Translations under genes and position numbers: made by a program | The notes under the pieces: model-generated | The model's database searches: none | What the model saw: the letters and a program-made list of their open reading frames with translations, nothing else | What the model was told of the DNA's origin: nothing | Part shown: piece by piece, positions 4,046-27,756 of the stretch | Layout: each line of letters starts with the position of its first letter | Position numbering within the stretch: the first letter of the stretch is position 1 | Source: a bacterium | GTDB taxonomy: Bacteria; Krumholzibacteriota; Krumholzibacteriia; Krumholzibacteriales; Krumholzibacteriaceae | DNA length: 64,000 bases | NCBI GenBank assembly: GCA_020350885.1 | Contig: CP070727.1 | Span: forward strand, 3,664,017-3,728,016 | Direction: 5' to 3'

Positions 4046-4990
4046 TCACTTCACTAGATACCTGCCGCCTTTAATGATCGTTTTAGTGCCGGCCGTGAGT
4101 GTTACCTTGTCCACGAGTGCATCGAAGTGAAACTTGCTCTTGTTCTTGCCGAGACCGTAGCTGTCTCCGATGGCGAAGTGAACGGTTCCGAATGCCTTTT
4201 CCGCCTCGAGCATATTCTTGCAGATCTTGGCCCCCCGGTTCGTACCGATACCGAACTCGCCGATGATCCTGCCCGTTGGATCCTTCCCGATGCCCTTGAG
4301 AATCTCCTTGATACCCTTGCCCTTGAAATCGACGAGTGTTCCCTTCTCGAAGATCATCTCGCCGCGGCCGATCTTGTCGTCGATCAGGCTGAAAACGATA
4401 CGGCCGGTGAAGGTACGCTCCACCGGGCAAGTGTAGCATTCACCGGCTGGAAGATTACCATGCATTCCTTTCTTGCTGATATCCCCGTTATCGTTCTCCC
4501 ATTTCCTTCCCTTCACGCTGAAGGTGATATCGGTGCCGAACCGGTTGGTTACACGAACATCGGGACAATCCTTGATGATCCGGATCACCTTCCGCGTGAG
4601 CCGATCCATGTTCTTGAAGTCGATATTCACGAGCCGTTCCATCATGTCGACAGTGATCCCCGGCATCATACAGATACGTCCATACTTGAATCCGGCCTCG
4701 ACCATGAATCCCCTAAAGGGTTTCTCCTCGATCCGCGCATCGAGCATGTAGACGATCACATTCGCCTTCTTGATCATGTTCTCGAAAAGCGATGTCGGCC
4801 CCGTGATGGGACGGAGCGTCTCCGTCATGAGATAGGTAGTAACCTCGGCCCCGCTCTTCTTCGCCCATAAGGCGAGGGCCTCGGCGATACGCATCTTTTG
4901 GCGATCGGTAACGAGCAGCAGCTTCTCGTTTCTCTTCACCTTGAGCGAGCTGATGATCGCCTTCTTCCCCGCACTGATGAGTTTGTTCAT
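4046..4990 (-). CDS. Aminopeptidase, M29 (AmpS/PepS)-like family
   Basis: The start was chosen at MNKLISAG (ATG at 4990). The ORF track extends further upstream. The GEFGIGTN and HFAIGDSYG motifs resemble thermophilic aminopeptidase T-like proteins. The family assignment is tentative. Confidence 0.45.
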   Translation of the reverse strand: MNKLISAGKKAIISSLKVKRNEKLLLVTDRQKMRIAEALALWAKKSGAEVTTYLMTETLRPITGPTSLFENMIKKANVIVYMLDARIEEKPFRGFMVEAGFKYGRICMMPGITVDMMERLVNIDFKNMDRLTRKVIRIIKDCPDVRVTNRFGTDITFSVKGRKWENDNGDISKKGMHGNLPAGECYTCPVERTFTGRIVFSLIDDKIGRGEMIFEKGTLVDFKGKGIKEILKGIGKDPTGRIIGEFGIGTNRGAKICKNMLEAEKAFGTVHFAIGDSYGLGKNKSKFHFDALVDKVTLTAGTKTIIKGGRYLVK

Positions 4991-15159: not shown

Positions 15160-16563
15160 CTATAGATACCCGAGGCTCCGTAACTCCTCCTCGAGCTTTT
15201 CCTGTTCGGCCGCACTGAGCTTGAATCCGGAATCGAGAATATCCGACCTTCTCTTGGTCACCCGGATGTGTTGTTTGAGCAATGAGGATAGTGGGCGTAA
15301 CTGCGTACTCTGATTTGCCAGGTTGTCCTTTTCCCGAGGATCGATTCCAAGATCATAGAGCTCTCGACGAAGCTCACCCATCCAGAGAATGCGCAGCACA
15401 GATCTCAGGCGTTTCACTTTCGAGAGATAGTGACATGGTGAGGCCTCGATCAATTTCAGGTTCCCCTGCCGGACCGCTGCCTTATGCGGACCGATACAGA
15501 AAACGAGATTCGGCTGGTCAATCGAGGATTTCCGCTCCATATCCGTTGTGAAATCAAACGAAACGAGCTGTTTCGGAAGCGCCCGCACCCCCGCAAGACG
15601 CATCAAACTCGGCATTACCTGGATGTGGCTTATCGGCTCTGCCTTTCGCACCGCTTCCGTACGCAGAGGATCATGGATAATACCAACCGTTCGTATAACC
15701 TCCTCGTAGAGGTGCACATCGGCATGCCCGAATTGACCGTGATCCCACAACTCCTCCCCATGATCGGAGAAGACCGCAAAGATCGTGTCACGGTACCGGT
15801 CATGCGACTTGAGTGATTCAAAGACCCTGGCGACATTGTCGTCCGTGCATTTGATGCTTGCATCATACTTGTCGATTATCCATTGGCGGGTTGCTTTATT
15901 CACTTTCCTGCGTCCGGTATTCATAGCGTTAACCAACTGGTGCTTTCGTGGAAATGTCCTCTCACCTTTTTTCTTTGGTTTTGGCCGTTCTATATGCTGG
16001 GGGAAGAACACCTCGACGATCTCCTGGTCGATATCATCTGGATCAGTCGAATCGAACAATGTTTCATATTCCGCTGGGAGGCGGTAGGGTGCGTGCCCCC
16101 CGCGGTAGTGTAGGAAGAGGCAGAAGGGTCTATCCCCATCCCACCGCTCCAGCCACTCGATCGCACCGTCACTCACGGCCCCGGTGAGCTCCTTGCTGAA
16201 ATCGAAGCTCCGTGTTTCAGTTACTACCTCGAGCCCTCCCCATATGCGCGATAGCAAATTCTTGAAGAAACCGAAAGTGACGATGGCGTGTGTATCGAAA
16301 CGATGTGCATCGAGGCATTCCTTAATTGGAGAATTTGCTATCTGCTTGTTGAAAAAGAAGTTGCCATGATAATAGGGATAGGTGGACGTGAACAGCGATG
16401 TGAAGGCCGGAGCGGTGAAGTTGGAGGTGGAATAGCAGGCATCGAGCACACTGCTCTGTTCGGCCAGCGTATCCAAAAACGGTGACGTGGATCTATGGTA
16501 GCCATAACAGCCGAGATGATCGGCTCGTAGAGTATCGACAACGATGAAGACAATACTGCGCAT
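15160..16563 (-). CDS. Sulfatase-fold (alkaline phosphatase superfamily) protein with Thr in place of the formylglycine Cys. Predicted phospho-/sulfo-transferase or esterase rather than a classical sulfatase
   Basis: The N-terminus VVDTLRADHLGCYGY is sulfatase-like. The segment TAPAFTSLFTS aligns to the C-T-P-S-R-A-S-L-L-T-G signature with C to T and R to F substitutions. There is no signal peptide or TM segment. Confidence 0.6.
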   Translation of the reverse strand: MRSIVFIVVDTLRADHLGCYGYHRSTSPFLDTLAEQSSVLDACYSTSNFTAPAFTSLFTSTYPYYHGNFFFNKQIANSPIKECLDAHRFDTHAIVTFGFFKNLLSRIWGGLEVVTETRSFDFSKELTGAVSDGAIEWLERWDGDRPFCLFLHYRGGHAPYRLPAEYETLFDSTDPDDIDQEIVEVFFPQHIERPKPKKKGERTFPRKHQLVNAMNTGRRKVNKATRQWIIDKYDASIKCTDDNVARVFESLKSHDRYRDTIFAVFSDHGEELWDHGQFGHADVHLYEEVIRTVGIIHDPLRTEAVRKAEPISHIQVMPSLMRLAGVRALPKQLVSFDFTTDMERKSSIDQPNLVFCIGPHKAAVRQGNLKLIEASPCHYLSKVKRLRSVLRILWMGELRRELYDLGIDPREKDNLANQSTQLRPLSSLLKQHIRVTKRRSDILDSGFKLSAAEQEKLEEELRSLGYL

Positions 16564-17302: not shown

Positions 17303-17532
17303 CGCCCTCACATCCTTTCCGATGTTTAACCTCAAGTTGCTCTTCTTGCCACCCCACGACTTCTTATTATATCATATATTACCTTATTGTTTCAATATGC
17401 TCCTTGTGAAGATGCAGGAACAGTGAGGGACCTGGTGAACTTCATCATGGAAGTGATGAGGCTCCACACGATTCCGTCCAGCGATCGAGTAGTGTATCTT
17501 TTTTTATAACAGAGCATTAAGGAATATAGAAT

Positions 17533-20048: not shown

Positions 20049-21758
20049 ATGGACGCTGTGAAGAACGTCATCGATTTCGTCTATGAGTATGTCTGGGAAT
20101 TTCCAAAGGCCCTTCCCTATTTCGTCGTCCTGCTTCTCGGTACCGGTATCTTTCTCACAATCCGGATGCGTTTCATACAGGTCCGCAAGCTGAATCACAG
20201 CATCGCCGTGATCGCAGGATTCTACGACAATCCCGAGGATACGGGAGAGATAAACCATTTCCAGGCCCTCTCCGCCGCTCTCTCGGCCACGATCGGAATC
20301 GGTAACATCGCCGGCGTCGCAACGGCGATCCATTACGGGGGACCGGGAGCACTCTTCTGGATGTGGATCACGGCCATATTCGGCACGACATCGAAGTTCG
20401 TCGAGTGTACCTTGAGCATGCACTACCGCCAGGTACATCCCGACGGGGTCGTCTCTGGCGGCCCCATGTACTACATCGAGAAGGGCCTCGGTAGCAAATG
20501 GAAACTCCTTGCCATCATGTTTGCCGTCTGTGCCGTGATCTCGTCCTTTGGGAGCGGTAACAGCGTGCAGGCATTCACCGTGGCCGACTCCTTCCGGAGC
20601 GACTTCGGTATACCCACCTGGATAACCGGCTCGGTGATGGCGGTGCTCATCGGCCTCGTTATTATCGGCGGAATCAAACGGATTGGGATGGTGGCCAGCC
20701 GCCTGGTGCCATTCATGTCCGCCATTTACTTCATCGGCGCCGTAACGGTGCTGCTTATCCATGCACGGTTGGTACCGGAGGCGTTCTCCAGTATCATACA
20801 CGATGCCTTTCATCCGCGGGCGGAGGTGGGAGGATTCCTCGGTTCGACATTCATCTTCACGCTTGTATGGGGAGTCAAGCGGGGTATCTTCTCGAACGAA
20901 GCGGGTCAGGGAAGTGCTCCGATCGCCCACGCGGCCGCCAAGACCCAGGAGCCGGTTCGTGAAGGGATCGTCGCAATGCTCGGCCCGTACATCGACACAC
21001 TCCTTATCTGCACACTCACCGGTCTCGTAATCGTTACCGTGGGGGTCTGGAAGGACAAGAAGATCGATACGATCCCCTTCACGAACAAGGAAGAGATAAG
21101 CGTTTTGAAGACGGGCGGGAGGATATATAAAAATGGCGAGATCCTCGATGAGGACCTCTTCGTCGGAAGCTTCGCCGTCATCGACGGTAAGGCAAAGCAT
21201 GTAATCTTCTCGAAGAACAGCAGTACCGTGGACGACGCCATGCTCATGTACGACGACAAGCCGTTCAGCGGTCTCGCGACCGTGGACGAGGAAGAGGAGG
21301 TCCTCTTCAGGGATTCGGAGGGCACCGAAGTCCCGGGATCGGAGATCCAGCTTCGTGGTGCCTTTCTGCAGAACGGGTCCCCCCTTACTGCATGGGCGTT
21401 TAAACGTGGCCTTTCTCCGATCGGGAGCTGGGGGAACTATATCGTCACCATCGCCGTCTTCCTCTTTGCAATATCCACAGCCATCTCATGGTCGTACTAC
21501 GGCGATCGGAGCATCGAGTATCTTCTCGGATCACGGGCCATCCTTCCGTACCGCGTGATCTTCTGCATCGTGCATTTCCTCGGAGCAATCTTCTCGCTCG
21601 AGATCGTCTGGGGATTCGGAGACACGGCACTCGGCCTCATGGCCATACCAAACCTGATCGCCATTATCGTGCTCTCAGGAGTGACACGGAAACTAACCCT
21701 CGATTACTTCACCCGGTCGCACAAGCGTTATAAAGATTCACTATTCGGCAAACGGTAG
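20049..21758 (+). CDS. Sodium:alanine symporter family (AGCS) transporter with ~120-aa hydrophilic insertion
   Basis: The motif GEINHFQALSAALSATIGIGNIAGVATAI..GGPGALFWMWI is a canonical AgcS signature. The segment from residues ~340-460 (TNKEEISVLKTGGRIYKNGEILDED...EEEEVLFRDSEG) is an acidic soluble insert between TM helices. Confidence 0.8.
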   Translation: MDAVKNVIDFVYEYVWEFPKALPYFVVLLLGTGIFLTIRMRFIQVRKLNHSIAVIAGFYDNPEDTGEINHFQALSAALSATIGIGNIAGVATAIHYGGPGALFWMWITAIFGTTSKFVECTLSMHYRQVHPDGVVSGGPMYYIEKGLGSKWKLLAIMFAVCAVISSFGSGNSVQAFTVADSFRSDFGIPTWITGSVMAVLIGLVIIGGIKRIGMVASRLVPFMSAIYFIGAVTVLLIHARLVPEAFSSIIHDAFHPRAEVGGFLGSTFIFTLVWGVKRGIFSNEAGQGSAPIAHAAAKTQEPVREGIVAMLGPYIDTLLICTLTGLVIVTVGVWKDKKIDTIPFTNKEEISVLKTGGRIYKNGEILDEDLFVGSFAVIDGKAKHVIFSKNSSTVDDAMLMYDDKPFSGLATVDEEEEVLFRDSEGTEVPGSEIQLRGAFLQNGSPLTAWAFKRGLSPIGSWGNYIVTIAVFLFAISTAISWSYYGDRSIEYLLGSRAILPYRVIFCIVHFLGAIFSLEIVWGFGDTALGLMAIPNLIAIIVLSGVTRKLTLDYFTRSHKRYKDSLFGKR

Positions 21759-21865
21759 CCCCATCCCGGACCACCGGAGCCGGCAGACCGACCACATCGT
21801 AAGAGTAAAAACCTAAATTAGTTAAGATATTGCTGACGGATAAAAAGTAATGCGGCTTTGACTCA

Positions 21866-21894
21866 TTGACAGTATTGAAAAAACCGTATATAAT
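21866..21894 (+). promoter_or_regulatory. Perfect-consensus sigma70 promoter (TTGACA-17-TATAAT) with an AT-rich UP-like region upstream
   Basis: TTGACA lies at 21866-21871. It is followed by a 17-nt spacer and TATAAT at 21889-21894. An A/T-rich stretch precedes it at 21800-21860. Confidence 0.6.
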
Positions 21895-21900
21895 GGAAAT

Positions 21901-22074
21901 GGAGGTCCCTGCTGGAATGGTGAGAAGGTTTGTCTAGGATAAAATAAAAACCGCGGGCTCAACTCTATATTTGATAGAGAGACCCTCGACGACCTACCAC
22001 GTTACAGCGGGGACATCTTTATGTGCTCACACTGTCGCGTGGGTTTACGAACCACACGGTGTGGGTATTTTTTT
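21901..22074 (+). ncRNA. Candidate structured small RNA (~174 nt; identity unknown, possibly 6S-like or novel)
   Basis: It starts ~7 nt downstream of the consensus -10. The 5' GUCCCUGCUG (21905-21914) pairs 10/10 (one G-U) with CAGCGGGGAC (22005-22014), giving a closing helix. An internal hairpin GGGCUC..CUCUAU-auuug-AUAGAG.GACCC is present. The transcript ends in an intrinsic terminator. No credible ORF is present (the longest is 13 codons). Confidence 0.5.
22052..22074 (+). terminator. Rho-independent terminator (CCACA-cgg-TGTGG + T7)
   Basis: A 5-bp GC-containing stem is followed by a TTTTTTT run at 22068-22074. There is no U-tract in the minus orientation, so it serves the plus-strand sRNA. 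Confidence 0.5.
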
Positions 22075-22099
22075 ATGGGGAAGGGTGTGTGGTACCGGT

Positions 22100-22702
22100 C
22101 TATTCTTCGTACTTATCCACGAGCCCGTCACGCAACCAAACATACCGCTTCTTGGTCTGCTGACGGGGATCCTTGAAAATCCACTGCTCCTCAAGAACTC
22201 CGCCGAGTTCGGTGCTTTTCATCTCGTCCGGATACCCCCAGGACTCGAGCGCGGCCTGTCGCTTCATACCCTTGAAGATCTCGTGATTGAATATCGCCTT
22301 GGCCGTCTTCTTTCCGTATCTTCGAAGGTTCATCCGGTACCGGTATTCGGGTTTCTTGAACCAGAAGAGCCTGCCCATCTTCTCCTCGAAGATTTCCTTG
22401 GTGATCGGCCGTTCGAGATTGAGATGGTGCCTGATCCGCTTCCTGCCCGGCCCCTTCACGGTGACGGCGCCGCTCCAGTGCATATCGAGACCTACGATCA
22501 TAACCTTCGTATCACGGTCGATAATCCCACCACCCTTGCTGTCTATGAGAAGGGATCTCGTCCAAGCTGTTCTCCCGCTGTAGTGGTCTTTCAGAGAATC
22601 CATGTCGTGGATGGGGATATCCTTCCTGATGTTATCGATCACCTTACAGCCTGCTAACACCACAATGAGAATAAGGGCGAACAGACATGTTCTTTTACCC
22701 AT
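22100..22702 (-). CDS. Lipoprotein, hypothetical
   Basis: It has a lipoprotein signal peptide with lipobox LAGC (MGKRTCLFALILIVVLAGC). The mature protein is basic and has no recognised domain. Confidence 0.5.
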   Translation of the reverse strand: MGKRTCLFALILIVVLAGCKVIDNIRKDIPIHDMDSLKDHYSGRTAWTRSLLIDSKGGGIIDRDTKVMIVGLDMHWSGAVTVKGPGRKRIRHHLNLERPITKEIFEEKMGRLFWFKKPEYRYRMNLRRYGKKTAKAIFNHEIFKGMKRQAALESWGYPDEMKSTELGGVLEEQWIFKDPRQQTKKRYVWLRDGLVDKYEE

Positions 22703-23161: not shown

Positions 23162-23788
23162 TTACCCGAGGGAGTTGACCTTGAAACTCCTCCTGTGGAT
23201 AGAAGTCCAACCATGTTCGCGGATAGCCTCTATATGTTGCCTGGTCCCGTACCCCTTGTTGCGACTGAAACCGTATCCTGCATACTCAGTGTCCTGCTCC
23301 CGCATGATCCGGTCCCGTGTAACTTTGGCGACAATCGAAGCAGCCGCTATCGAGAAGCTCCTTCGATCCCCCGCCTTCACCGCTCGTGCGGGGAGATTCA
23401 CGTCCGGGATGTGCCGGCCATCGATGAGCACCAGTACTGGCGCCGGATCGAGCGAGTTGATCGCTTCGGTCATCGCCTTGAGTGTTGCGTTGAAGATATT
23501 GAACCGGTCGATATCCTCGGGGCCGACGATCCCCACACCCACAGCCTCACTGAATCGCCGGATATTATCATACAACTCCTCGCGGAGCGGCTCGCTGACG
23601 AGCTTGCTGTCCCTCACCCTTGAAAGCCTGTCATGCGGCTTGCATATTACGGCCGCTGCGACAACGGGACCGGCAAGGGCCCCGCGCCCCGCCTCATCCA
23701 CACCGGCCAGCAGCTGCGAGGCGGCACCCGCCATGTCGCGATCGAAGCAAACCAGATCCTCGAAACAGATCCGGCCCCGGAGGGTCAT
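23162..23788 (-). CDS. rnhB: Ribonuclease HII
   Basis: [21 protein letters not shown] is the catalytic DEAGRG motif. Confidence 0.9.
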
Positions 23789-24141
23789 CGATCCCCCTTC
23801 TCACTCTTCTCGGCGATCCGGGCCGCCTTTCCTCTCAGCTTGCGCAGATAGTAGAGTTTTGCCCTTCGGACCTTGCCTCGCCTGAGAACCTTGATGGATG
23901 TAACATTCGGCGAATGAAGTGGAAAGACCCGTTCCACACCTATCCCCTGGCTTATCTTCCTGACGGTGAACGTTTCCCTGACACCGCCCCCACGCCGCTG
24001 CATAACGGTTCCCTGAAAAGCCTGAACCCTTTTTCTGCCTCCCTCGACGACCTGCACATCGACCCGAACCGTATCCCCAACATTGAATTCGGGAACCGAG
24101 TCCTTCATATGCTTTGCCGAGATGTGATCGAGCATATCCAT
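23785..24141 (-). CDS. rplS: 50S ribosomal protein L19
   Basis: [28 protein letters not shown]...[18 protein letters not shown] is full-length L19. Confidence 0.9.
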
Positions 24142-24231
24142 GACAACTCCTTACCTCTCTTGTCTGCACGCTGTATCGGTTATCCAATGAACATCGTATA
24201 TTCCAGGCAAACGGATTCCGTGTAGCTCCCG

Positions 24232-24978
24232 TCAATTCCTGGGATCCGGGTGCGTCGAATCATCCCCCTCCTTTATCAGGTCGGGCCTGAACCGGCGAGT
24301 CCGCTCGAGAGCTGAATGCTTTCTCCATTCATCGATCTTGGCATGGTTGCCCGAGAGAAGGATCTCAGGAACCGCAAGTCCCCGGTACTCGGGAGGCCTT
24401 GTATAGTATGCAGCATCGAGCTGGAAACGACGCATCGCCGAGAACGAATCCGACTCTCTCGATCGCTCGTCCCCGAGAACACTCGGCAGGTGCCGAACCA
24501 CCGCATCGGCAACGATGAGTGCGGGAAGCTCGCCGCCGCTCACGACAAAATCGCCGATGGATATCGCTTCGGTTACAACGAGATCGCTCACCCGCTCATC
24601 CACACCCTTGTACCGTCCACAGACGAAAACAATCTTGCGCTTCTCTGAGAGCTCTATCGCCTTTTTCTGATCGAAGATCCGTCCACTCGGGGAGAGCAGG
24701 ATCACCGGTACCTCGTCACTCTCATCGGCTGTTCGGACCGACTCGACCGCCTCTACAATGACGGGTGCCATCATGATCATCCCCGGACCGCCCCCGTAGG
24801 GGTAATCGTCGACTGTACCGTAGGCATCCACGGCGAAGTCACGAAGATTGACGACATTGTAAACTGCGGCATTTTTCTTTGCAGCGATGCCGAGTACACC
24901 CGTCTCGAGTACACCGGTGAACAGCTCTGGACAGATCGTTATGAAATGCATCTCTATCATGTCCATCAGTGCTACCAC
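24232..24978 (-). CDS. trmD: tRNA (guanine37-N1)-methyltransferase
   Basis: MHFITICPELF...DDYPYGGGPGMIMMAPVI is a TrmD signature, including the SPOUT knot region. The start is ambiguous. The true start is probably MIEMHF or MHF at 24960 or 24951. Confidence 0.85.
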   Translation of the reverse strand: MVALMDMIEMHFITICPELFTGVLETGVLGIAAKKNAAVYNVVNLRDFAVDAYGTVDDYPYGGGPGMIMMAPVIVEAVESVRTADESDEVPVILLSPSGRIFDQKKAIELSEKRKIVFVCGRYKGVDERVSDLVVTEAISIGDFVVSGGELPALIVADAVVRHLPSVLGDERSRESDSFSAMRRFQLDAAYYTRPPEYRGLAVPEILLSGNHAKIDEWRKHSALERTRRFRPDLIKEGDDSTHPDPRN

Positions 24979-25496
24979 TTGAAATCCAGCAACCCCTGCG
25001 GCGGATTCACCTCCATGGTCCTCTCGTCGGGATTGACGCTTCGCACGACCTCCCCAACATCGGGGATGAGATACCGCTCACTCCCGCCCTCGACGATGAA
25101 GCAGTTCTGAGAATTGCCGATGAGCATATCAACCACCGTGCCCAGGCAAGAACCATCGGACAAGAGAACAGAAAAACCCATAAGCTGACAGGGAAGCAAC
25201 CTGGAAGGCCGCACCTCCTCTTCGAGCCCGTCCAGCGAAATGCGCAGCTCGAGACCGATGAGTGATTCCGCTTTATCGATCGAATCGATGTCCGACAATC
25301 TGAGGATGTACGTCCCCCCTTTGGTGCGGTACCGTTCGATTGATACCTCTCTGCAAACAGTGCCGTCGGAAACGAGCTCGTGGCCCGATGCATTGAGCGA
25401 TTCAGGCCAGAAGTCATAGCCCGGAAGCAGCTTTACTTCCCCCTTGAGACCGACCGCTTTCACTATTGTACCGAGTACTGCATACTGAGAGTCCAT
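24972..25496 (-). CDS. rimM: 16S rRNA processing protein RimM
   Basis: LGTIVKAVGLKGEVKL is the RimM N-terminal motif, followed by a PRC barrel. Confidence 0.85.
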   Translation of the reverse strand: MDSQYAVLGTIVKAVGLKGEVKLLPGYDFWPESLNASGHELVSDGTVCREVSIERYRTKGGTYILRLSDIDSIDKAESLIGLELRISLDGLEEEVRPSRLLPCQLMGFSVLLSDGSCLGTVVDMLIGNSQNCFIVEGGSERYLIPDVGEVVRSVNPDERTMEVNPPQGLLDFKW

Positions 25497-25505
25497 CGAG
25501 ACACC

Positions 25506-25751
25506 CTATTCGCGTATTTCGAGTAATACCTTCTCACCCATGCGGGTTGCCGCGGCGTTGACGAGCGCACGGAGCGCCTTGGCCGTCTGACCGCTTCTGC
25601 CGATCACCTTGCCCACATCCATTTTGTTGACGGAGAGAACAATGATGTGTGTATCGTCCCGCATCTCTTCGTTCACAACGATATGCTCAGGTCTGTCTAC
25701 CAGCATTTCGGATATCTTGTGAATCATCACCTTGATTTGTTCAACACTCAT
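25506..25751 (-). CDS. KH-domain RNA-binding protein (YlqC/UPF0109)
   Basis: VGKVIGRSGQTAKALRALV is a KH GxxG loop. The size and its position between rpsP and rimM are conserved. Confidence 0.85.
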   Translation of the reverse strand: MSVEQIKVMIHKISEMLVDRPEHIVVNEEMRDDTHIIVLSVNKMDVGKVIGRSGQTAKALRALVNAAATRMGEKVLLEIRE

Positions 25752-25802
25752 GGATCCTCAACTCCCTGTCACCATACACTCACAGTCGGGATTGTGTGTG
25801 GA

Positions 25803-26402
25803 TCATTCGCCTTTCGCCTCACCCTCGCCGATACTCTCCTCGGAGGGGGCTTCGGCTTCCGACTCGGGCTTGGCCGGTTTCGCTTCCTTCTTCTTTTCCC
25901 GACTGGCACCTGTTTTTTCCTCGGATTTCAATTCCTCGCCCGTCTCCGCGCTTCCTTCGAGCTTCGCTCCTTCATCGCCTGGAGCCTCGGAACCCGCCTC
26001 AACCTCTTCTGTTATCTCCGCATCCGACGCGGCTGTTTTCTTCTCCGAGGGCTCCTTCTCGCTCTTCGGCATGGGCCGTGGCTGCTTCTGGCGGCGCGCC
26101 TCGATCGTGGAATCGAGCTCGTGGATCTTCACCCCAGATTTAAGCAACTGCCAGCGTTCGAGCAATCCGGCCTTTTTCAGAACCTGCATTGCATTGGCGG
26201 TCGGCTTGGCACCGACATCGAGCCACTTGTAGACCTTGTCCTCATCGAGCTTGATCTCGGGAGGATCCGACATCGGATTGTAGTAACCGATCGTTTCGAT
26301 AAACCGTCCGTCACGCGGGGAGCGTTCATCCGCCGCAATGATACGATAGAAGGGCCTTTTCTTCGATCCCATCATCTTCATTCTGATCTTAACAGCCAAC
26401 AT
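25803..26402 (-). CDS. rpsP: 30S ribosomal protein S16 with ~115-aa acidic/Lys-rich low-complexity C-terminal extension
   Basis: The N-terminal ~80 aa ([25 protein letters not shown]...GYYNP) are canonical S16. The tail is rich in E/K/A/S/P. Confidence 0.85.
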
Positions 26403-26433
26403 GTACCTCCAGAATTGTTGTCCACCGTCATAT

Positions 26434-27756
26434 TCAAAGCTGTGGAAAATCCGCCGGTAATGCCTTTGACAGCTTTGTAAACCGTTTCATCATCTTCTTC
26501 ATCTGCTGGAACTGATTGAGCAGTCTGTTTACATCCTGTACACTCGTTCCACTTCCCGATGCAATCCTCCTCCTGCGCGAACCATCGATGAGGTTTGGTG
26601 ATCGACGTTCCTCGATCGTCATCGATCGTATGATCGCCTCGATCTTTTCAAGCTCCTTCTCACCGACATCCGACGCTGCGACCTTGAGCCCCTTCATCCC
26701 CGGTATCATTCCGATGAGTTGATCGAGTGGCCCCATTCGCTTAAAGCGTTGGAGCTGATCGAGAAAGTCCTCCAAGGAGAAGGTTTCCTTACGGAGCTTC
26801 CGTTCCAGCTCCTGCGCCTTTTTCTCGTCGATCGTCTCCTGGGCCTTATCGATGAGGGATAGCACATCCCCCATTCCGAGGATCCTGCCGGCCATCCGGT
26901 CGGGGAAGAACGGTTCGAGATCGCCGACTTTTTCTCCGGTCCCGGCAAACTTGATCGGTTTACCGGTGATCGAGGCCACCGAAAGGGCCGCTCCACCCCT
27001 TGTATCACCATCCAGCTTTGTTAGAACGACACCGGTGAAATCGACCTCTCCGAGAAAGCTCTTGGCAACGGCAACGGCCTCCTGCCCGGTCATGGAGTCG
27101 AGCACAAGAAGTATCTCCTCCGGTGCGAGAACCTCCTTAATGGAGCTGAGCTCCGCCATCATCTCCGTATCGATGTGGAGCCTGCCGGCGGTGTCCACTA
27201 TTATCGAATCGTTCAATCCCCGTTTGGCTTCACGTACCGCACCGTGAATTATCTCCGTTACCCCCATCCCGGCTCCCGGTGCATAGACGGGAGTGTTGAT
27301 CTGATCCCCGAGTATCTTGAGCTGGTCGATGGCAGCCGGCCGATAGATATCCGCGGCGACGAGGAGCGGTTTTCTCCCCTTCTTACCGAGGTGAACGGCG
27401 AGTTTCGCCGCGAAACTGGTCTTTCCCGAACCCTGAAGCCCCACGACCATTACACCCGCAGGGGCACCGGAGAGTACAAACGGTACCGGCTTCCCGCCAA
27501 GAACACGAACCAGTTCCTCGTGTACGATCTTTACGATGTGCTGATCGGGAGTCAGACTCTCCAACACCTTCTGCCCGAGGGCCCGCTCGTTGATATGATC
27601 GACAAAACTCTTTACAACTTTGTAGTTTACATCCGCTTCGAGGAGAGCTCTGCGGACCTCGCGCATCGCCGTCCGGATATGGCCTTCACGCACCTTTCCA
27701 TGGCCGCGCAGCTCCTTGAAGATCCGGGCAAACTTTTCGCTAAGGTCCTGGAACAT
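26434..27756 (-). CDS. ffh: Signal recognition particle protein Ffh
   Basis: The NG domain carries GLQGSGKTS and DTAGR. The C-terminal domain is Met-rich (M domain). Confidence 0.9.

Follow-up and report, generated by a model that had tools for sequence, protein, structure and literature searches.

A probable new family of structured small RNAs in Candidatus Krumholzibacteriota, encoded at the end of the ffh-to-yraN gene cluster

The 6S RNA (SsrS; RF00013, with a short Bacteroidetes form, RF01685) is about 150-200 nt long, is encoded by a single-copy stable RNA gene of the abundant type with a consensus sigma-70 promoter, and folds into an elongated, irregular rod whose termini pair with each other and whose middle holds a sizeable unpaired tract bordered by G-C pairs. 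Apart from the length, these traits are shared by an element located at positions 21866-22074 (+ strand) of the 64,000-nucleotide stretch analyzed here (contig CP070727.1 of assembly GCA_020350885.1, positions 3,664,017 to 3,728,016; hereafter the window), which comes from a genome of the Krumholzibacteriota, a lineage known, to our knowledge, from metagenomes only. However, the Krumholzibacteria RNA has a core of about 120 nt, carries its unpaired tract on one strand, and possesses a short distal stem; its closing helix, P1, is invariant in sequence, whereas the closing stems of 6S RNAs vary. The region very probably represents a genuine non-coding RNA (ncRNA) gene of a new family, as judged from sequence comparison. 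The initial annotation of this DNA had left open either a 6S RNA or an undescribed small RNA (sRNA), and the second option is the one borne out, as 40 further loci share the promoter, fold, and terminator, and no Rfam family matches.

The homologous loci were collected in two ways. A search anchored on the 200-aa protein encoded next to the element, with one representative genome per species, yielded 12 loci, nine of them labeled Candidatus Krumholzibacteriota, -ia, or -aceae, two labeled uncultured bacteria, and one Patescibacteria. In 11 of these 12, nhmmer detected the element in convergent orientation to the anchor gene, with a similarity that runs from the promoter to the T-run and no further. 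The remaining locus, L012 (CAZPAH010000007.1, anchor at 4609), has the most divergent anchor gene (53% identity) and holds no RNA at this site, where another convergent gene accompanied by a hairpin and T-run is found instead; this lineage may lack the RNA or carry it elsewhere. Metagenome contigs were also scanned with an RNA-only pattern (GTCCCTG-N-CCGCGGGCTCA-N-GCGGGG), which matched 42 loci. True members accounted for 29 of them, while 13 were chance matches in GC-rich coding DNA and were discarded, as they lacked a promoter, U-run, or model match. The complete set amounts to 41 loci (the window and 40 further ones) with 33 distinct RNA sequences. The conserved unit, measured from the transcription start site (TSS) to the U-run, spans approximately 116-126 nt in 32 members, and the alignment shows a mean column identity of 81% over about 130 columns, 43 of which are invariant.

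As far as it has been sampled, the family appears to be restricted to Candidatus Krumholzibacteriota. Among the records with a locus or protein of Krumholzibacteria type (L002, DATKWS010000207.1, and the proteins P0087 and P0107), the source labels Patescibacteria, Bathyarchaeia, and Dadabacteria occur, and the contigs behind these labels are probably mis-binned. Regarding a possible origin from mobile elements, neither blastn against phages and plasmids nor the pattern in IMG/VR gave a match.

The initial annotation had proposed a perfect sigma-70 promoter with a 17-nt spacer, and this was confirmed by a score of 12/12 and by conservation in all 37 homologous loci with enough upstream sequence (Table 1). 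The site TTGACA-17-TATAAT is the sole 12/12 match between positions 16000 and 28000, and a site of this quality would be expected by chance, according to our own arithmetic, about 0.02 times per 64-kb window; weaker promoter-like sites are not enriched in the same interval, with nine against 7.4 expected from shuffles. The distance between the -10 hexamer and P1 is also largely fixed, being 10 nt in 31 of the 37 loci. The AT-rich UP region described with the promoter does exist in the window (approximately 21836-21850), but it is not conserved in the relatives.

The fold was built from an alignment (A1) with RNAalifold, refined manually, and then realigned on the basis of the model (A3). The resulting consensus is one rod, composed of a leader/U-tail extension of about four pairs, mostly A-U or G-U, followed by helices P1, P2, P2b, P3, P4, and P5, with a variable internal loop between P1 and P2. 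The 10-bp closing helix that had been predicted between 21905-21914 and 22005-22014 is present, with one U-G wobble, and is conserved; likewise, RNAalifold applied to the homologous intergenic regions found the helices to be conserved, with covariation. Among the cells of paired columns, 95-97% are indeed paired, compared with 45-53% when partners are slid, and eight pairs show changes on both sides, a number reached by none of 500 shuffles. The two kinds of constraint coexist in the same molecule: P2 (GUGAG/CCAC) is invariant in sequence, while the three P2b pairs have all changed on both sides among the homologues. In P5, the CUC/GAG core is invariant, and the outer pairs and the loop differ among three subgroups.

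Single-sequence folding is in agreement with the consensus for most of the family. Minimum free energy (MFE) structures, compared for 28 of the 32 members and with z-scores of -3.0 to -7.0 relative to mononucleotide shuffles, recover at least 30 of the 34 consensus pairs in each of the 23 members of the main group, and the full set in 15 of these, whereas for the window and its closest relatives they recover only 18-27 of 32-33 consensus pairs and differ in the apical domain. The 174-nt transcript of the window folds with -65.1 kcal/mol (z -4.39), and none of 200 shuffles was as stable. The + (RNA) strand obtains 86-155 bits with the covariance model (R1) and its complement 12-38 bits; these scores, together with the G-U pairs, assign the fold to the + strand. 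The model matches exactly once per locus and nowhere else in the 64-kb window.

A protein-coding explanation finds little room in the alignment. Two open reading frames (ORFs) are called mechanically over the element, one of 46 aa (21822-21962, - strand) and one of 228 aa (21971-22657, + strand) that is antisense to the gene of the 200-aa protein, but neither is conserved: the length changes among the homologues are not multiples of three, which argues that no coding constraint acts on the element. The earlier statements that the transcript holds no meaningful ORF, that no plus-strand gene follows it, and that the sole neighboring coding sequence is convergent therefore stand, the next real gene being the 200-aa ORF on the opposite strand. 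ARAGORN found no tRNA or tmRNA, and Rfam at gathering score no family, anywhere in the 64-kb window, in line with the lack of tmRNA and signal recognition particle (SRP) signatures noted at first.

The 3' end of the element is where the window departs from its relatives. Five or more consecutive T directly follow the closing helix in 36 of 39 loci, and the window is among the exceptions. A terminator scanner reported here a distal 5-bp core at 22052-22064 followed by GTATTTTTTT, which folding lengthens to a hairpin of 17 pairs; the distal GC stem and T7 terminator of the initial annotation were thus recovered by both approaches. Within the approximately 30 nt considered downstream of the RNA, none of the other 38 loci shows a comparable hairpin followed by a T-run. 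On the - strand, no U-run stands behind the added hairpin, and on the + strand the hairpin and its T7 are predicted to stop transcription 25 nt short of the convergent gene. The stretch 22023-22074 looks like a compensatory replacement, for the + strand only, of the decayed ancestral U-run ATCTTTAT. The presence of an added terminator precisely where the proximal U-run has decayed argues, indirectly, for genuine transcription of the + strand and for selection against read-through. As to the size of the RNA, the approximately 174 nt initially predicted hold for a transcript reaching the distal terminator, but the unit conserved across the relatives is of about 120 nt (21901-22022). The one other lineage with a degenerate proximal U-run (ATTTATC) is represented by loci L002 and L037, where the final bases of P1 are also part of an alternative hairpin (GGCAUUUAUCG/CGAUAAUGCC) with CUUUC behind it.

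A U-run placed directly after P1 in 36 of 39 loci, with a convergent operon beyond it, could also be explained by an RNA that senses a ligand like a riboswitch, uses P1 as its terminator stem too, and controls antisense read-through into lipoprotein-yraN-rnhB-rplS. The architecture is aptamer-like, with many invariant positions at bulges and junctions. However, P1 consists of 10 GC-rich pairs extended by about four more, its probability of being unpaired is near 0 in every predicted ensemble, and no conserved alternative pairing was found; moreover, the unconditional strong terminator of the window genome would abolish any control of read-through while the RNA stays conserved. We therefore regard this explanation as highly improbable. 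A riboswitch or leader acting in cis on a downstream gene was rejected, as no + strand gene lies downstream in any locus and P1 is always formed in the predicted ensembles.

The comparison with Rfam 15 at gathering score returned nothing in the window or in 20 homologous loci. With a permissive threshold (E<=10) and queries of 136, 151, and 501 nt, no meaningful match was obtained either, 6S (RF00013) and 6S-Flavo (RF01685) included; noise was the only output, namely a 6.8-bit match to a long non-coding RNA (lncRNA) and terminator-like matches of 10-12 bits to NsiR1 and anti-hemB. Membership in the 6S family, suggested in the initial annotation, was consequently abandoned: the element fails the 6S models, its core is too short, and its bulge is one-sided instead of forming a two-stranded central bubble, with P3 and P4 contiguous on the 3' strand and a distal stem of about 10 irregular pairs. 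Its length had seemed compatible with 6S because the terminator hairpin, which the relatives lack, was included in the count.

A miniature functional analogue of 6S is a different proposal: the rod, with its single-stranded A/U-rich region, would resemble an open promoter and trap the sigma-70 holoenzyme. The rod with paired ends, the consensus promoter of stable-RNA type, and the single copy are compatible with this role, as are the G-C pairs flanking the 12-18-nt unpaired tract (G43-C93 invariant; G44-C92 in 32 of 33 sequences), the frequent occurrence of UAAAAU in the bulge, and the fact that no canonical 6S was seen in the approximately 350 kb scanned. Nevertheless, neither Rfam 6S nor 6S-Flavo matches at E<=10, the core, at about 120 nt, falls short of 150-200 nt, full pairing of the 3' strand across from the bulge leaves no two-stranded bubble, the stem past the bulge has only about 10 irregular pairs, and the UAAAAU-like motif is missing in several members, such as L002 and L031. 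Such an analogue appears distinctly unlikely.

The most accessible part of the molecule is the A-rich bulge, which varies in length and sequence among the homologues and is always A-rich, with a mean probability of being unpaired of 0.85-0.98 in an ensemble calculation on 32 members. The 11-mer CCGCGGGCUCA that follows it shows no change in the window or in any of the 12 loci anchored on the protein, a set that was not selected with CCGCGGGCUCA. The bulge and the first 4-5 nt of this 11-mer constitute the sole large accessible region of the RNA.

Among the possible functions, we tentatively favor that of a stable, trans-acting RNA that binds a protein partner. The sigma-70-type consensus promoter would start transcription at about 21901, and the RNA would form one rod of about 40 bp, with its 5' end paired to its 3' end. 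In the relatives, the closing helix and the U-run would end the transcript at about 120 nt, while in the window genome, with its U-run decayed, the second hairpin and its U7 would take over, giving species of about 121 and 174 nt. The RNA would act in trans, being abundant and protected from exonucleases, and its invariant P1 (with the fixed U-G), its P2 (with the bulged A), and the exposed A-rich/CCGCGG bulge could form the protein-binding surface of a scaffold or a decoy, rather than of a simple antisense pairing partner. The consensus promoter, the single copy, and the helix-locked termini fit an abundant, stable, trans-acting RNA, and recognition by a protein (or a tertiary contact) is suggested because P1 and P2 are fixed in sequence while P2b and P3 covary in the same set of sequences.

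Several observations weigh against a protein-binding role. None of the neighboring genes (lipoprotein, transporters, YraN, RNase HII, and L19) encodes a candidate partner protein. The invariance of GTCCCTG, CCGCGGGCTCA, and GCGGGG was imposed by the search pattern in 27 metagenome loci, so that only the window and the 12 loci anchored on the protein give an unbiased sample at these positions. A role in cis could be indicated by the strictly syntenic placement of the RNA at the 3' end of a single operon (39 of 39 loci). Finally, an invariant and accessible GC-rich 11-mer beside an unstructured A-tract also resembles a base-pairing seed.

Indeed, a trans-acting sRNA could use CCGCGGGCUCA as a seed to pair with UGAGCCCGCGG-like sites in mRNAs, with the bulge serving as a landing or chaperone site and the terminator and U-tail as a stability or Hfq-type module. 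The 11-mer adjoins a region whose probability of being unpaired is at least 0.85, the P4 helix that holds part of it is weak and irregular, and the gene is equipped with a promoter of its own and with an intrinsic terminator ending in a U-tail. However, no target beyond chance was found in the 64-kb window, in which the complement of CCGCGGGCUCA is not enriched (two matches at up to one mismatch, compared with 1.68 expected): one match lies in the RNA gene itself and the other inside a 662-aa ORF. In addition, one rod ties up both ends of the RNA and leaves no distinct hairpin module at the 3' end, and about 81% of conservation extends over the whole 120 nt, with P1 and P2 invariant. Full-length conservation and invariant stems are unusual for seed-type sRNAs at comparable divergence, and we consider this function possible but doubtful. 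A bolder version of the protein-binding role would make the RNA a subunit or decoy of a Krumholzibacteriota-specific housekeeping ribonucleoprotein, either as the smallest known 6S-type regulator of RNA polymerase, with a bubble on one side only, or as the partner of a protein reading the U-G helix of P1 and the A-rich/CCGCGG bulge; this we think unlikely.

The gene neighborhood bears on the possibility of a role in cis. The minus strand of the window carries ffh (26434-27756), rpsP, rimM, trmD, rplS, rnhB, and yraN, a cluster that spans 23162-27756 from ffh to yraN and is closed by the gene of the 200-aa lipoprotein. In all 39 full loci, the RNA is convergent to this last gene and lies 25-120 nt from its stop codon. 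On the other side, the RNA gene of the window is preceded by a sodium:alanine (AGCS) symporter gene (20049-21758, + strand), but this upstream neighbor varies: a symporter pair is found in the sub-clade of the window and a transporter with 10 transmembrane segments, which by eye looks EamA/DMT-like, in the main sub-clade. Since the upstream gene differs between clades and the lipoprotein side is constant, the RNA belongs to the conserved right-hand block, and rearrangements are apparent just upstream of its promoter.

Given this arrangement, the element might serve the ffh-rpsP-rimM-trmD-rplS-rnhB-yraN-lipoprotein cluster, at whose end it lies, by terminating transcription in both directions or by insulating the cluster, or else the convergent transcript might pair with the 3' untranslated region of the operon and affect its processing or stability. 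Besides the constant convergent position and the exchangeable upstream gene, the A-rich leader and U-tail flanking a long hairpin are consistent with such a role, and no obvious separate operon terminator was noticed in the few spacers read by eye. Nonetheless, a terminator needs neither a perfectly conserved promoter (37 of 37 loci) nor 43 invariant positions, the G-U pairs and model scores favor the + strand over the - strand (12-38 bits), the tract after the rod is only weakly U-rich on the - strand (CUCCAUUUCC here), and plain cis-antisense pairing imposes no sequence conservation. A cis role is thus quite improbable in our view. A type I toxin-antitoxin antisense RNA was rejected as well, since the convergent gene encodes a lipoprotein-like protein of 200 aa and not a small hydrophobic toxin, and the two do not overlap.

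The positions of the features of the element and of its convergent neighbor are collected in Table 1.

Table 1. Features of the RNA gene and of the convergent gene, with positions in the window.
Feature	Position	Strand	Remarks
Upstream block (A/G)AGATAT	21824-21830	+	Constant spacing of 35-36 nt to the -35 hexamer; about half of the loci have it
-35 hexamer TTGACA	21866-21871	+	12/12 promoter match; unchanged in all 37 homologous loci that extend far enough upstream
-10 hexamer TATAAT	21889-21894	+	17-nt spacer in 37/37 loci; TATAAT in 21, TATACT in 16
Purine-rich leader and predicted 5' end	21901-21904	+	TSS predicted at about 21899-21902 from the -10 position; leader pairs with the U-rich tail
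P1, 5' strand, GUCCCUGCUG	21905-21914	+	Pairs with 22005-22014; 10 bp; 8/10 pairs invariant or nearly so
P2 and P2b, 5' strand	21920-21930	+	GUGAG with invariant bulged A, then 3 bp; alignment columns 26-36
P3, 5' strand	21932-21938	+	7 bp with 21984-21990; compensatory changes in 4/7 pairs
A-rich single-stranded bulge, 5' strand only	21939-21950	+	12 nt here, 12-18 nt in relatives
Invariant CCGCGGGCUCA	21951-21961	+	Contains the palindrome CCGCGG; first 4-5 nt unpaired, rest in weak irregular P4
Apical domain P4-P5	21955-21983	+	Irregular P4; P5 is a CUC..GAG hairpin with variable loop
3' strands of P3, P2b, and P2	21984-22000	+	P3 21984-21990, P2b 21992-21994, P2 (CCAC) 21997-22000
P1, 3' strand, CAGCGGGGAC	22005-22014	+	One U-G wobble in P1, kept in 33/33 sequences
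Decayed proximal U-tract AUCUUUAU	22015-22022	+	Position of the terminator U-run in relatives; longest T run here 3
Second terminator	22023-22074	+	17-pair hairpin 22023-22068 and T7 22068-22074; dG -22.8 kcal/mol, z -4.9
Convergent lipoprotein-like gene, 200 aa	22100-22702	-	Lipobox LAGC; no Pfam domain; gap to the RNA element 25 nt

Upstream of the promoter, the (A/G)AGATAT block occurs at the same relative position in loci L002, L003, L008, L009, L015, L017, L019, L026, L027, L030, L031, L038, L040, L046, and L053. It is found in both AGCS-flanked and DMT-flanked clades and is absent from the TATACT sub-clade, and the loci that carry it often have, about 12-20 nt before the -35 hexamer, a further block that contains TAAT. 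The (A/G)AGATAT block may be the site of a regulator or part of a second, tandem promoter. Loci L008 and L046 carry a second TTGACA within the 17-nt spacer (TTGACAGGGATTGACAT...), 11 nt past the first, which by its sequence is a local duplication of the -35 motif. Elsewhere in the window, another strong promoter-like site is located at 17366-17395 on the - strand (TTGAAA, 18-nt spacer, TATAAT; 11/12, with an extended -10 TG).

The genes within approximately 3.5 kb of the RNA encode an SNF transporter, the AGCS transporter, the lipoprotein, YraN, RNase HII, L19, TrmD, and RimM. The 200-aa protein is probably extracytoplasmic, as suggested by its lipobox and the lack of a Pfam domain, and was rejected as a partner of the RNA; no Pfam family scored above threshold for it or for its homologues (157 clusters). 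The best 120 of these homologue clusters are all at least 59% identical, and the protein family looks confined to the Krumholzibacteria clade. A resemblance of its C-terminus to BamE, noted as an impression, was dropped because no tool confirmed it. Two further observations concern the same cluster: the S16 ORF encodes 199 aa with the S16 domain restricted to residues 11-68, leaving a long C-terminal extension, and the rnhB and yraN ORFs, as called mechanically, overlap by about 49 nt.

Across the loci, YraN, RNase HII, and the 200-aa lipoprotein are about 50-66% identical in most cases, reaching approximately 78% in the closest relative (L031), and L19 is 67-85% identical. The RNA is probably abundant and important to the cell, because it is more conserved than most of the neighboring proteins and has a textbook promoter. 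The Krumholzibacteriota thereby gain a well-delimited RNA family that is backed by covariation, comes with a working covariance model, and is absent from Rfam. The locus can serve as a marker for the Krumholzibacteria clade, and the RNA offers a concrete test case for the use of stable regulatory RNAs in an uncultured lineage. If the RNA were an analogue of 6S, the minimal architecture of that class would be redefined; if it belonged to a housekeeping ribonucleoprotein, it would add a new class of phylum-wide stable RNA beside 6S, SRP, and Y RNAs. A literature search found no paper on ncRNAs of Krumholzibacteriota or on the motifs of this RNA, and nothing relevant on 6S-Flavo.

Beyond 6S, the element can be set against other described RNAs. 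The bacterial small SRP RNA (4.5S, RF00169), about 115 nt in length, likewise forms a rod closed by pairing of its ends, and a connection was considered because the RNA gene lies at the tail of a cluster that starts with ffh. However, the apical loops are variable here and none is a GNRA loop (UAAUA, AUUUG, AUGAA, GAAUA, UAA), the symmetric and asymmetric loops of domain IV are lacking, and RF00169 gives no match, so this identity was rejected. The Y RNAs and YrlA, partners of Ro60/Rsr, are similar in length (about 100-120 nt) and in the sequence conservation of the stem formed by the two ends (GGUCC...GGAC here), the oligo-U at the 3' end, and the extensive unpaired interior, and the conserved stem suggests recognition by a protein. 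The resemblance of GGUCC/AGUGAG to hY3 is probably superficial. Unlike them, the Krumholzibacteria RNA has neither the bulged-C helix nor a tRNA-like domain, and assignment to the Y RNAs was discarded in the absence of an Rfam match, of the bulged helix, and of a TROVE/Rsr domain in the Pfam-scanned genes within approximately 3.5 kb.

Seed-type sRNAs, such as the cyanobacterial Yfr1 or the Hfq class II sRNAs with ARN motifs, also have their own promoter, an intrinsic terminator, and a U-tail, and they display an ultraconserved accessible stretch beside an A-rich tract; in contrast, the RNA described here is one closed rod whose stems are conserved in both sequence and pairing. Bidirectional intrinsic terminators resemble it in combining a purine- or A-rich tract, a long hairpin, and a U-tract between convergent units, but they differ from its conserved interior of 100 nt, its own conserved promoter, and its strand-specific fold. 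Several general hallmarks of sRNA genes are found at this locus, namely a promoter at a fixed distance, an intrinsic terminator at the 3' end, a covarying fold on one strand, and no conserved ORF. Altogether, the family is new, and its kind is a familiar one: a structured sRNA bounded by a promoter and a terminator.

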